From positions 2,560,001-2,624,000 of the forward strand of contig OZ245046.1 in NCBI GenBank assembly GCA_965224245.1: 64,000 bases of DNA, in the 5' to 3' direction. Shown here one piece after another: positions 16,927-20,530 of this stretch; the stretch's first letter is position 1, and each line of letters opens with the position of its first letter. This DNA is from Candidatus Eiseniibacteriota bacterium. GTDB taxonomy: Bacteria > Eisenbacteria > RBG-16-71-46 > CAZAMP01. Made by a program: the position numbers and the translations under genes. The notes beneath the pieces are model-generated. The model did no database searches, had not been told where the DNA came from, and saw only the letters and a program-made list of their open reading frames with translations.

Positions 16927-18165
16927 ATGCTGGCCAGATGGACACTTGCACTGATCGGACTGGTCGCGCTGACCAGCCCCGCGCTCGCGGCCTGGAACGG
17001 GACACACGAGACTCGCGACGGCGTGCGTCACGCCATCAACGGCGAGGACCCGATGACCACCACGCGGGTCCCGCTCGAGCCGCTGTGGAGGGTCGGGGGG
17101 CTCGACGACGAGGAGGTACTGTTCGGCGTCATCAGCCAGCTCGTGCACGACGACGACGGGAACCTGTACGTCCTCGACCGCCAGCTGTCCGAGATCCAGA
17201 TCTTCTCCCCGGCGGGGGAGTACCTGACCACGATCGGCCGCGCCGGTGAGGGCCCCGGCGAGTTCCAGAACCCGGCCGACATGTACCTGGGCCCCGGCCG
17301 GACGCTCGGCGTCGTGCAGATCTTCCCGGGCAAGGTCGTGCAGATCGGCCTCGACGGCGAGCCCCGCGGCAACTTCACGCTCCCGGCCGCGGGCAGCTTC
17401 CAGCTCGTGATGGCCGGACGCGCCAACGACGAGCGGATCACGCTGGCCGGCACGCTGATGCGCAACGAGGCGGGCCAGGGATTCGAGGATCGCTACCTGA
17501 AGGCATTCGCACCCGATGGCACCGAGCTGGCCACCTTCTACGAGGAGTCGGTCGATGCGCCGTTCGGGGGCCGCAAGTTCGACGAGAAGACGTTCACGAG
17601 CTTCCAGCAGCGCTGGGCGATGGCGTCCGACGGGCGCGTGGCGGCCGCCCCGTCGTTCGACGACTACACGATCCACGTCTGGAATCCCGACGGGAGCCCA
17701 TCGGTCATCATCCAACGCCCGGAGCACGAGCTCGCCGCCCGCACCGACGGTCAGATCGAGCGCTTCCAGAAGCTCTACGACGGGATCACGAGATGGAGCC
17801 CGCAGTCCACGTTCCACGTGAGCGAGACCCACGAGGCCGTCGACCGGATGACGTTTCGCGCCGACGGCTCACTGTGGGTGCTCTCGAGCCGCGGCTCCTG
17901 GACGCCGCCCGACGGCGTGATGGCGGTGTTCGACGTCTACGACCGCGACGGCCGGTTCGTGAAGCAGGTCGAGTTCGCCGGCGAGGGCGATCCCACCGAG
18001 GACTACTTCTTCTTCGCCGGCGATCGACTCTACATGGTGACCGACTTCTTCAGCTCGATCATGACGAGCTTCGCGGACGGTGACACCGAGGCCGAGGACA
18101 CCGAGCCGGAGCCGATCTCGCTGATCGCATTCGACCTGTCGGGGGTCGACGTCGGCATCAACTAG
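16927..18165 (+). CDS. Secreted 6-bladed beta-propeller (NHL-like) protein
   Basis: Signal peptide (ALA-A), GNLYVLDRQLSEIQIFSPAGEYLTTIGRAGEGPGEF, FDVYDRDGRFV; GAGGAG RBS. Confidence 0.8.
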   Translation: MLARWTLALIGLVALTSPALAAWNGTHETRDGVRHAINGEDPMTTTRVPLEPLWRVGGLDDEEVLFGVISQLVHDDDGNLYVLDRQLSEIQIFSPAGEYLTTIGRAGEGPGEFQNPADMYLGPGRTLGVVQIFPGKVVQIGLDGEPRGNFTLPAAGSFQLVMAGRANDERITLAGTLMRNEAGQGFEDRYLKAFAPDGTELATFYEESVDAPFGGRKFDEKTFTSFQQRWAMASDGRVAAAPSFDDYTIHVWNPDGSPSVIIQRPEHELAARTDGQIERFQKLYDGITRWSPQSTFHVSETHEAVDRMTFRADGSLWVLSSRGSWTPPDGVMAVFDVYDRDGRFVKQVEFAGEGDPTEDYFFFAGDRLYMVTDFFSSIMTSFADGDTEAEDTEPEPISLIAFDLSGVDVGIN

Positions 18166-18217
18166 CGGCGTCGCTCCGGCGGCGTCGCTCCGGCTGACGG
18201 CGTGGGGTTCCAGTGCC

Positions 18218-18360
18218 GGGTCGACGAGGGTGGGGCGCTCCGTCGCTCCGGCTGACGGCGTGGCCGTGAGATCGGCTGGGGGCATCATTTCGTGTCGGAG
18301 CGGCTTTGCGAGGCACCGGTGTCGCACGAGTCGCGACTCCGGCCCCACCCTCGCCGACCC
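18218..18360. repeat. ~143-bp fold-back repeat element, inverted copy of the 20037/20296 family
   Basis: 18-bp terminal IR (18218-18235 / 18343-18360, 1 mismatch); 18244-18305 matches reverse complement of 20093-20154 with 4 mismatches in 62. Confidence 0.8.
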
Positions 18361-18631
18361 TACGTCGGGGGCCCGGGGCCGAGCGGCCATCGCACGGGGT
18401 CGGTCACGCCTGACGCCGGCATCGACCGCGGCGGCCCGGCTCAGCGGGTGACGTCACCACGCATGGCTGCGGCGGACGCACGATGCGCGGTCGTGACCGC
18501 TCAGCGCTGGACACCGTGCGACCCGTGGCCCGCCAGCGGAGCACGTGTACCCGGGGAACGGTATAGAGGAGTCAGCCTCCCGAGTAACCTGTTGGTGGGT
18601 AAGCACACTTGCCAACAGAAGGAGGCTGACG

Positions 18632-19702
18632 GTGCCGAGGCTAGCATATGCGTACACGTGTGGCGTGGATCTTCACCGGGATTCCGCGCAGATTTGCGTG
18701 GTGGATGCCAGAGGTGAGCGTGTTCAGGAACGTCGGTTCACATTCGGTAGTGCGACGACTCGAACGTCGCTGCTGGACTTCATCGTGGGTCTGGGGCGGG
18801 TAGAGGTCGCGGTAGAGTCGGTGGGGATGAACCGGTGGTTCGTGAACGGCCTGGAGGCCCGTGGTCTGGTCGTCGGCCAGGACCTGTTGGTGGTTCATGC
18901 GGCCTTTCTTCGCCTGAGCGAGAGTGGCAAGAAGACGGATCGACGCGATGCCCGCGAGATTGCTCGTCGTCTGCATCTGGGAGATCTCCGCCGGCGGGGG
19001 CGGTCGTACTACGCCACGGAAGCGGAGTGCGACACGCGTCGGCTGCTCCGAACTCGTCGCGAGCTGGTGAAGCAACGCCAGCAGTGCATCAGCACGCTTC
19101 GAGGGATGTTCCGTGCGTATGCGCTGTCGATGCCGCGTGGCACGTTGTGGAGCCAGTCGTCGCTTCAGTGGCTGTCGGAGCACGTGACGCAGCTTCCGAC
19201 GGGGGCCTTCGCCGCTGGCAGCCTGGTGTGTGTGTTGCAACGTACTCAGCAGGAGATCTTGCGACTGGAGACGGAGATCCGTCGTCGGGCGCGTCGCGAT
19301 CGCCGTGCCTCGGATCTCATGCGGGAGGTTCCGCAGGTCGCGGAGCTGACGGCGCTGACGCTGGTGGCGGAGCTCGGAGATCTGTCACGGTTCGACGGTC
19401 CGCGCCAGGCGGCGGCGTATCCGGGGCTGGTGCCGTCGGTGAACGACTCGGGGGACGCACAACGCCATGGTCGGCTGATCAAACCTGGCAATCGTCATCT
19501 CCGGTGGATCCTGGGCCAGGTCGCCGTCCGGTTGCTGGCGAGCAATGCGCGGGTGAAACAGTGGGCGGTCCCCTACCGCAAGCGCATGCCGACAAACCGG
19601 ATCCGAACGGCGCTGGCGCGGCGGCTACTGGTTGGCATCTATCGCAGTCAGCAGCGTGGAGAACGGTTCTCGCTCGAGCGGTGCCTGGGAATGAAGCCCT
19701 AG
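18632..19702 (+). CDS. IS110 family transposase/recombinase
   Basis: GVDLH, VAVES, KKTDRRDA (RuvC-like DEDD); ELGDLSRF...AAYPGLVPSVNDSG...HGRLIKPGNRHLR (Tnp domain with catalytic Ser); GGAGG RBS then GTG. Confidence 0.95.
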   Translation: MPRLAYAYTCGVDLHRDSAQICVVDARGERVQERRFTFGSATTRTSLLDFIVGLGRVEVAVESVGMNRWFVNGLEARGLVVGQDLLVVHAAFLRLSESGKKTDRRDAREIARRLHLGDLRRRGRSYYATEAECDTRRLLRTRRELVKQRQQCISTLRGMFRAYALSMPRGTLWSQSSLQWLSEHVTQLPTGAFAAGSLVCVLQRTQQEILRLETEIRRRARRDRRASDLMREVPQVAELTALTLVAELGDLSRFDGPRQAAAYPGLVPSVNDSGDAQRHGRLIKPGNRHLRWILGQVAVRLLASNARVKQWAVPYRKRMPTNRIRTALARRLLVGIYRSQQRGERFSLERCLGMKP

Positions 19703-19719
19703 CCCGCGGCTGGTGGTGA

Positions 19720-19950
19720 CATGACGATCGAGCTCGTCGGTGCTCGAACGGAGGCGTACTACGGTTTGCACCAAGGCCAGCGATGCCTGAGCCTCAACCC
19801 GCGAATGTCAGGCGCTTCCGACTACCTCTCTGTGCCACGTCATATGACGTGAGCCCGAAAAGGCGTACGGACGAAACCGACACTGGGATCGAGCGCCGGC
19901 ATCCGATCGTATCTGTGGCGTGACACGCGCAGATGAGGAAGCTACGGCCG
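19720..19950 (+). ncRNA. Putative bridge RNA / seekRNA of the IS1111-type element; boundaries approximate
   Basis: Nested stems acgatcg/cgatcgt and gtcggtgctcga/tcgagcgccggc, internal gaggc/gcctc or cctga/tcagg, perfect palindrome cacgtcatatgacgtg; short matches to target and donor junctions; location typical for IS1111. Confidence 0.65.
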
Positions 19951-20028
19951 AAAGGGGCTTGACTCCTCTCGGGTGCGCGTCACCACCGCAGAAACCGATG
20001 CGAGCCGAGTGCGCCCCCCCGACGCCCA

Positions 20029-20500
20029 CCGCGTGAGGGAGCGACGGGGGTGGCGTCGCCGGAGCGACTGATGCGACCCCCACGTCCCACGGAGCCGCTC
20101 CGACACGAAATGATGCCCCCAACCGATCTCACGCCCACACCGCCAGCCGGAGCGCAGGCGACACCACCCCCGTCGCTCCCGACACGCGCCCCCGCCGTCG
20201 GGAACACCCGGGTGCAACACGCCACGAGCACCCCCGCGGCCAATCGGCACCCCCGACGCACCCCCCGGAAAACACTCCCGAGACCCCCCGCGTGAGGGAG
20301 CGGCGGGGGTGGTGTCGCCGGAGCGACTGATGCGACCCCCACGTCCCCCCGGAGCCGCTCCGACACGAAATGATGCCCCCAACCGATCTCACGCCCACAC
20401 CGCCAGCCGGAGCGCAGGCGACACCACCCTCGACGCTCCCGACACGCGCCCCCGAGGGACCGCTGGCGACACCACCCCCGACGCTCCCGACACGCGCCCC
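20029..20500. repeat. Two near-identical ~166-bp direct repeats plus a partial third, each a fold-back with 24-bp terminal IR
   Basis: Units 20029-20194 and 20288-20454, partial 20465-20500; IR gggagcgacgggggtggcgtcgcc (20037-20060) / ggcgacaccacccccgtcgctccc (20157-20180). Confidence 0.9.
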
Positions 20501-20530
20501 GGACGAGGGAGCGCCCCAGAAGGAGAGCGC

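Follow-up and report, generated by a model that had tools for sequence, protein, structure and literature searches.

The 64,000-nucleotide stretch of DNA analysed here (hereafter the window) comes from contig OZ245046.1 of a Candidatus Eiseniibacteriota bacterium (assembly GCA_965224245.1, forward-strand positions 2,560,001 to 2,624,000). Between about 18554 and 19973 it carries what appears, judging from its sequence, to be one copy of an IS110-family insertion sequence (IS) with the organisation of the IS1111 group, whose 3' non-coding region (NCR) would yield a guide RNA and whose right tip is probably damaged; we put the probability of this reading at about 85%. The gene, ends and flanks of the element are laid out as follows.

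18549-18553 (+): left flank arm (LT) ACCCG, copied in register by guide 2 of the RNA
18553-18556 (+): G run GGGG of the left junction, which would hold the crossover or core
18557-18564 (+): left-end extension AACGGTAT, family motif GGA[ACT]GGTAT, kept in 13 relatives
18562-18567 (+): TATAGA, predicted -10 box of a circle-junction promoter, kept in relatives; function assigned by analogy with ISEc11 (PMC11187229)
18565-18574 (+): left subterminal inverted repeat AGAGGAGTCA, perfect 10-bp complement of 19960-19969
18573-18631 (+): leader hairpin GUCAGCCUCC / GGAGGCUGAC, minimum-energy fold of the leader
18632-19702 (+): recombinase gene, 356 amino acids (aa), likely GTG start at 18632 with AGGAGG six bases upstream (18620-25); D13, E62, D103, D106 and S273
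19703-19973 (+): downstream NCR, 271 nt
19884-19955 (+): spacer between RNA and right repeat, variable in length and sequence among relatives
19959-19964 (+): TTGACT, predicted -35 box of the circle-junction promoter; TTGAC kept in 14/14 right ends
19960-19969 (+): right subterminal inverted repeat TGACTCCTCT, complement of the left repeat
19970-19973 (+): right junction, C + GGG; a relative in sequencing run X5 has AAAG instead of C behind 19969
19974-19981 (+): right flank arm (RT) TGCGCGTC, the same letters as after CCCGGG in the paralogous uninterrupted site L004

The first-pass annotation of this DNA had described an IS1111-type RNA-guided recombinase with intact DEDD and Ser motifs, and both motifs are present. 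Pfam DEDD_Tnp_IS110 (PF01548) matched residues 10-162 (E 2.6e-14, 53.7 bits, cut-off 29) and Transposase_20 (PF02371) matched residues 229-309 (E 6.8e-20, 71.7 bits, cut-off 21.3), so that the protein has the N-terminal RuvC-like DEDD domain and the C-terminal Tnp domain with catalytic Ser of the IS110 family. All five catalytic residues were invariant in an alignment of 12 sequences (the window protein and 11 homologues, 42-69% identity). S273 lies within GLVPSVNDSG (residues 265-274), which is the GL-P----S(t)G motif of the IS1111 group, and the Ser region aligned with the PDB chains of IS621 (E 1.7e-6; ...GLTPRRYESG...) and ISCro4 (E 5.1e-6).

The sub-terminal inverted repeats reported earlier turned out to be a perfect 10-bp pair, separated from the left junction by 9-11 nt and from the right one by 1-4 nt, within the 7-17 bp usual for the IS1111 group; the longer downstream non-coding region of that group is likewise seen here (271 nt vs about 76 nt upstream). 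The left junction reads ...GTGTACCC GGGG AACGGTAT and the right one ...GACTCCTCT C GGG TGCGCGTCACC. The element is single-copy in its 6.9-Mb genome and only its flanks repeat: they recur at three other places (L002, L003 and L004), all uninterrupted, which read ...GAGCACGT[G/A]TACCCG[G/A]GTACAC... on the left, while the right side of L004 reads ...AACTCCCGGGTGCGCGTCACCACCGCAG. Because these paralogous uninterrupted sites read CCCGGG, the crossover was placed in the G runs 18553-18556 and 19971-19973; judged from the same sites, the span of 18552-19973 given earlier was correct at its ends to within 1-4 nt. The junctions have only CGGG/GGG in common with the uninterrupted sites, which carry 74 extra nt and are not true empty sites of this locus; L004 keeps these 74 nt between its two CCCGGG, and the window is without them. 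In L002 and L003 the match to the left flank ends at 18553 and that to the right flank begins at 19979, with 81 nt between the two, and a contig of run X1 joining 18553 to 19986, considered as an excision product, was instead read as such a paralogous locus. No joint of the two element ends was seen in metagenome contigs, which are insensitive to rare forms. A promoter scan of 18400-20100 returned no sigma-70-like site, and a terminator scan of the same interval returned one terminator-like site, inside the gene and within chance expectation.

The IS sits in an intergenic repeat system (18166-18552 and 19974-20530) found at four places in the genome, L002, L003 and L004 included. Its units, each about 260 bp long, stand in tandem behind a conserved leader of about 300 nt, and L003 and L004 have at least three of them; upstream of the IS there is a partial inverted unit, 18270-18300 being the reverse complement of about 20090-20125.

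Scans of genomes and metagenomes gave 19 loci with recombinases 40-46% identical to that of the window, and 13 of these loci have the same type of ends, the left end reading GGA[ACT]GGTATAGA...AGTC and the right end TTGAC...TCTA followed by GAAGG, AAGA or AAGG. Relative loci are referred to by L numbers, and seven of them, designated group A, have the common target TTGCGCC-GG-GCGCAA. The closest proteins in a large protein collection were P0002 (69% identical) and P0003 (67%). No homologue at E<=1e-30 was found in the 205 other genomes of the phylum (206 species genomes, this one included), and members of the IS family were found in metagenome-assembled genomes (MAGs) labelled Gemmatimonadales, Burkholderiales and Krumholzibacteriia; the earlier description of the element as coming from a poorly sampled lineage is thus apt for the host phylum and not for the IS family, which is spread over MAGs of other lineages. 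A tblastn search of a plasmid collection returned 108 records, all below 60% identity and only one covering at least 80% of the protein, and no named IS; the best match covered 82% of the protein at 27.7% identity and was annotated only as 'IS110 family transposase'. One relative, L017 (about 1500-1530 and 2790-2830), interrupts a coding sequence: by eye, its flanks read ...PNSNAFI and ERFIRSIKEECLDRVI... and resemble the integrase-core region of another transposase, with the target TTCATC-GAA-CGCTTC, in which GAA is common to both junctions.

Although the recombinases are only 40-46% identical, a homologous RNA block lies downstream of the gene in 13 other loci. In the window it corresponds to a structured candidate RNA of about 150 nt, with these parts.

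19734-19883 (+): conserved structured RNA, candidate long seekRNA or bridge RNA
19736-19741 with 19876-19881 (+): P1, GUCGGU / ACCGAC, closing the whole RNA; UCGGAU/AUCCGA and UCGGGU/ACCCGA in relatives where the window has UCGGU/ACCGA
19750-19756 with 19813-19819 (+): P2, GGAGGCG / CGCUUCC, closing the putative target-binding loop; helix 3, both-side changes in 6/11 pairs
19765-19772 (+): guide 1, UUUGCACC, 8 nt, at a homologous position in 14/14 aligned RNAs
19774-19788 (+): inner hairpin of the target-binding loop, AGGC...GCCU; helix 4, 2/3 pairs covarying
19797-19805 (+): guide 2, ACCCG (19797-19801), then CGAA, which copies the left end GGAA; same sense as the left flank
19821-19830 (+): conserved 5' single strand of the second loop, ACUACCUCUC, including CCTCTC; kept in relatives with other inverted repeats, no covariation
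19831-19857 (+): P3 hairpin; helix 5, 8 pairs, 2 with both-side changes, 99% of cells paired
19858-72 (+): purine-rich strand
19859-19865 (+): candidate left-donor guide AAAGG + CG, copying the right-end tip in 13/14 family members, the window excepted

RNAalifold resolved five helices on the family alignment. In an alignment of 12 sequences, 97.3% of 332 cells were paired in 28 pairs, vs 32.6-42.2% when the partners were slid by 1-3 columns; compensatory changes on both sides occurred in 10 of the 28 modelled pairs, and the covariation score was reached by none of 500 shuffles. A covariance model built from the alignment (R1) recovered two RNAs outside the seed, L017 (77.9 bits) and L024 (73.1 bits), each directly behind a homologous recombinase gene, and gave 81.1 bits on the window RNA, its sole match in the 6.9-Mb genome. 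R1 matched only the seed genome among 151 genomes of the phylum of L017 and nothing convincing on L020 and L036, and Rfam 15 in sensitive mode had no match over 18000-20500. The conserved secondary structure in a non-coding end that is expected of a seekRNA or bridge RNA is therefore present. A multi-stem 3' region with a candidate bridge RNA or seekRNA had been proposed before; the RNA is confirmed as conserved and covarying, whereas the fold of the whole NCR is unremarkable when taken alone.

Two segments of the first internal loop follow the flanks of the individual elements. In the relatives, guide 1, on the 5' strand of the loop, is complementary to the right flank's top strand. Within group A it pairs 8/8 with its own flank in L019, L027 and L028 and 7/8 in L029; the own-flank score is 8.0 in both L025 and L024, and L017 pairs at 8/9 positions (by eye). 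Its two outer bases change with the flank, ACUU going with AAGT and AGUU with AACT. In a permutation test over 10 target classes the diagonal sum was 65 vs 40.4 +/- 4.5, and 1 in 100,000 permutations was as high; one representative per target class was used, which is ten of the 14 aligned elements (L018, L027, L029 and L030 dropped as group A duplicates), and for L022 the right flank of its twin L023 was used instead. Guide 2, on the 3' strand, has the same sense as the left flank and stands directly before a conserved C(G/A)A; its in-register copy of that flank extends over 4-6 nt in 7 of 8 classes (only 2 nt in L025). Its permutation test, which also omitted L031 (left flank as in group A) and L032 (contig without left flank), gave a sum of 38 vs 12.5 +/- 5.25, with 4 of 40,320 permutations as high. 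The match to the target that marks a seekRNA was thus found family-wide and in the X5 relative, and it is weak for the window copy; judged from these alignments, the loop segments of the conserved RNA track each member's own flanks across the family. A top-strand match lying 5' of a bottom-strand match, as in this family, is the order reported for IS1111 seekRNAs (PMC11187229).

L025 and L033 are one IS with identical RNA at the guide positions, on two contigs and at different sites. Their right flanks are one base apart in the guide-paired stretch (GACTATT vs GACTTTT), a natural tolerated mismatch.

Several observations count against a guide function in the window. Its guide 1 makes five Watson-Crick pairs with its own right flank (GCACC with GGTGC) plus one U.G, and scores 5.0 there vs 2.0-5.5 on foreign flanks. 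Its guide 2 copies the 5 nt of ACCCG (0-1 in foreign flanks), and fits only if the left arm ends one G earlier than in the relatives; the guide-flank match of the window is the weakest of the family. The exact ends and core of the relatives were deduced without empty sites, and there are fewer target classes than loci because the seven loci of group A have one target. The whole NCR folds unexceptionally (z -1.83; 7 of 200 shuffles fold as well). Finally, among the sequencing runs listed with the stretch none is recorded as RNA, and the transcript is unobserved. The last point, together with own-flank matches of 5-6 nt, the empty Rfam search and the lack of a promoter-like site inside the element, would suit a conserved 3' region that acts as a recombinase-binding or regulatory DNA or RNA element without any guide, its flank matches being coincidence or a common target motif. 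We regard this as very improbable: with 10 of 28 pairs showing compensatory changes, a structured RNA is indicated, and the loop segments change with the flanks across 8-10 target classes and in the X5 relative. Moreover, a 3' NCR with a top- before a bottom-strand match and an RNA of about 150 nt has been demonstrated experimentally for ISEc11, ISPa11 and ISKpn4, and the lack of an internal promoter is also reported for ISEc11 (both in PMC11187229). The window alone would not prove a guide, and the case is made by homology of position, the family tests and the close relative. On these grounds the RNA-guided IS1111-type element proposed by the first-pass annotation is borne out by the layout, the GL-P----SG motif, the covarying RNA and the tracking of flanks; a covariance model of homologous 3' ends with guide-target covariation, which it had named as a check, showed a covarying structure and loop segments following the flanks family-wide.

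The guide assignments made in that annotation fared less well. It had read three hexamers as guides, GCGTAC (19754) for the left target arm, TGCACC (19767) for the right target arm and CCTCTC (19825) for the donor. All three are present, and matches of 6 nt are no more than chance on their own. TGCACC lies inside guide 1, the homologous guide position, and keeps its role as right-arm guide; CCUCUC, identical to the tip of the right repeat of the window, could moreover pair with the left repeat. Against the map as a whole, the GCG of GCGTAC is the 3' end of the 5' strand of P2, a covarying stem, the AC of UAC does not vary among the 14 aligned RNAs, whose targets do differ, and pairing of GCGUAC with the flank would include a C.A mismatch. 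CCTCTC falls within ACCYCYCUG, which is kept where the inverted repeats read AGAAAGAGTC or AGATGAAGTC, and it was not counted as a donor guide because this motif does not covary with the inverted repeats of the relatives. We therefore give the complete map hardly any credence: one of the three hexamers stands, the left-flank guide is instead ACCCG at 19797-19801, and CCTCTC is not accepted as a donor guide.

For the donor, a guide reading the inverted repeat through CCTCTC was rejected on the same lack of covariation. A top-strand guide for the left end was also considered, since a conserved ACCYUCC pairs with GGARGGT at 6/7 positions by eye in some relatives, and was rejected as fitting poorly in the window and L017. 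A convincing guide for the left end of the element was not found in the RNA.

Behind guide 2 come 3-4 nt that vary with the left end of the element itself and not with the right flank. This extension is a C plus 2-3 nt, with positions 2-4 exact in 13 of 14 elements, and occurs with the left ends as CGAC/GGAC, CGAA/GGAA, CGAU/GGAT and CAAA/GAAA. Tentatively, the target loop may thereby read the junction of left flank and left end in a handshake-like manner, on the guide opposite to the handshake guides of IS621, although we consider this rather unlikely at present. If true, the junction read by the extension would be the product of insertion and the substrate of excision. The extension was not found described for IS1111 seekRNAs in the available parts of PMC11187229, PMC11208160 and PMC11208158; no literature search was aimed at the point.

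The RNA strand just 3' of P3 concerns the other end. In 13 of the 14 family members it copies the last 4-5 nt of the right end (GAAG with ...TAGAAG, AAAGA with ...TAAAGA, AAAGG with ...TAAAGG), followed by C(G/A) in the RNA where the DNA has G(G/A). The window is the exception: its RNA has AAAGG (19859-63) and its right end reads ...TCTC. Metagenome runs X5 and X6 contain contigs with an element about 87-98% identical to that of the window, piece by piece (roughly 90-95% for the X5 copy), and the right end of the X5 copy reads ...TCTAAAGG. Beyond 19969 X5 continues with AAAGGGGTGCAACAACCGTCATCACCTCGC, so that its right end is ...CCTCT AAAGGGGTGCAAC. X5 differs from the window by 19764 G>A, 19765 T>G and 19773 A>C, and with these changes its guide becomes GUUGCACCC, apparently an exact 9/9 complement of its own flank GGGTGCAAC. 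That flank is 29/30 identical to a repeat occurring five times in the window's genome (...CGTGTACCCGGGTGCAACAGCCGTCATCACCTCGC...).

The best-matching target, GTGTACCCGGGTGCAAC, lies at 1875-1891 of locus L038 (G000:C1:2349500-2351900), inside an element of about 1.9 kb that is present in 5-6 copies 85-98% identical to one another. Its product, a protein of 525 aa, has a single Pfam match, to an HNH endonuclease domain at the C-terminus, and the target motif coincides with the beginning of that domain. The homologous sequence is where the X5 relative of the IS has inserted.

Since the right tip of the window copy differs from that of its closest relative and from the tip its own RNA specifies, a point that had been missed in the earlier account of this copy, its present-day mobility is doubtful. 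A single deletion across the right junction after insertion, removing the AAAG(G) tip together with the 74-nt flank, is the most likely explanation suggested by the alignments. Had such a deletion occurred, the copy would still encode recombinase and RNA, and we lean towards its being unable to excise on its own. The opposing view takes the copy to be intact and mobile, with the short tip …CCTCTC normal for its lineage and with insertion into a flank already without the 74 nt. It accords with an intact recombinase ORF and all catalytic residues, an RNA core scoring 81 bits, and the presence of the window's letters at 19765 and 19773 in X6, which comes from another study, so that the lineage is not private to this genome; the window guide would then be a lineage variant and not private decay. 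Some weaknesses of the X5/X6 evidence also speak for caution, as it consists of single contigs at a depth of 3-5, and further X5 differences in 19766-19772 or 19859-19865 may exist, since the listing for X5 record 21 gives only 11 of its 15 substitutions. Set against this, AAAGG+CG matches the right tip in 13/14 family members and the X5 relative and not in the window, and the predicted junction-promoter spacer between TTGACT (19959-64) and TATAGA (18562-67) is, by hand count, 15 nt with the present tip, 18 nt with an X5-type tip and 16-18 nt in the relatives. The genome holds a single copy despite its many ACCCGGGTGCAA sites, and the two anomalies adjoin one junction. The alternative, an element whose right tip is short throughout its lineage and which entered a site already shortened, is accordingly retained as possible but less probable than damage to the tip after insertion.

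The ACCCGGGTGCAA sites number 32 in the genome (reversed control 0), none of them occupied; five continue with A, as the window guide would prefer. For the element we infer a core of G/GG and a preferred target of ACCCG-GG-TGCAA(A/C). By comparison, the site that the present copy occupies, ACCCG-GG-TGCGCG, is probably only near-cognate, and this copy can probably not excise. The target core of the IS, ACCCGGGTGC, occurs 109 times in the genome vs 18 times for the reversed control, a REP-like abundance; it often lies within the palindrome GCACCCGGGTGC, and 32 occurrences continue with AA.

Taken together, the parts suggest the following course. An RNA of about 150 nt from 19734-19883 would be closed by P1 and open into a first internal loop closed by P2, where guide 1 on the 5' strand would pair with the top strand of the right target arm and guide 2 on the 3' strand with the bottom strand of the left target arm. 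In a second loop, around P3, the 3' strand AAAGG+CG would copy the element's right tip, which serves as left donor arm. By analogy with the IS1111 family, the element is expected to excise as a circle, in which TTGACT and TATAGA would form a junction promoter for both RNA and recombinase gene; the circle junction would then be recombined with a target of the ACCCG-GG-TGCAA type by a recombinase tetramer carrying the RNA. As in the family, the RNA would pair with both DNA strands, in the target as in the donor, around a short core common to the two, and strand exchange would proceed through a phosphoserine intermediate. Circle excision, the junction promoter, the tetramer-bound RNA, its pairing with target and donor, and phosphoserine exchange are described for the family in PMC11187229, PMC11208160, PMC11208158 and PMC13626964.

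The leader of the gene may add a layer of control. One arm of its hairpin, GUCAGCCUCC (18573-18582), is the inner half of the left inverted repeat and pairs with GGAGGCUGAC (18622-18631), the ribosome-binding site, just before the GTG. An equivalent stem made of other sequences was predicted in 9 of 10 family leaders folded, L025 being the exception. The folding models suggest that the hairpin probably keeps translation from read-through transcripts low.

RNA-guided IS110/IS1111 recombinases are under development as programmable DNA-insertion tools, and such work draws on diverse orthologues whose guide code can be read. The locus and its 13 relatives form a compact subfamily whose RNA fold, two target guides and one donor guide are directly legible in the sequence, the locus itself coming from a phylum with few genomes; this cleanly readable guide code is the main value of the element, to which the copy adds a probable natural case of a near-cognate site with a damaged tip. 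The element is an ordinary new member of a mechanism described in 2024, which it leaves unchanged. Published covariance models predict bridge RNAs in 93.0% of IS1111 elements, with ISCARN28, ISAzs32 and ISPa11 illustrated (PMC11208160), and may already cover this RNA subfamily.

Among the closest known systems are ISEc11, ISPa11, ISKpn4 and ISPst6 (PMC11187229), which have, like the window element, a DEDD recombinase with GL-P----SG, subterminal inverted repeats, a long downstream non-coding region, no internal promoter, a top-strand match 5' of the bottom-strand match, and a short, partly palindromic repeat as target. The RNA of about 150 nt is similar in size to the 148-172-nt 'long seekRNA' forms (PMC13604230). 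The window recombinase is distant, with at most 28% identity to plasmid-borne family members, and its right tip looks damaged; the experimental demonstration is theirs, whereas the window system is known from sequence alone. With IS621 the element has in common a two-loop RNA in which each loop would read both strands of its DNA (PMC11208160 and PMC11208158), a Ser-containing domain that can be aligned, and a short core common to donor and target. IS621, as described in these sources, carries its RNA in the left end, with 2-3-bp repeats and a CT core, whereas the window element carries it in the right end, with 10-bp repeats and a probable G/GG core, and the order of top- and bottom-strand guides in its RNA is reversed relative to IS621. 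Its second loop belongs to a multi-branch region, a feature that PMC11208160 also describes for many IS1111 orthologues.

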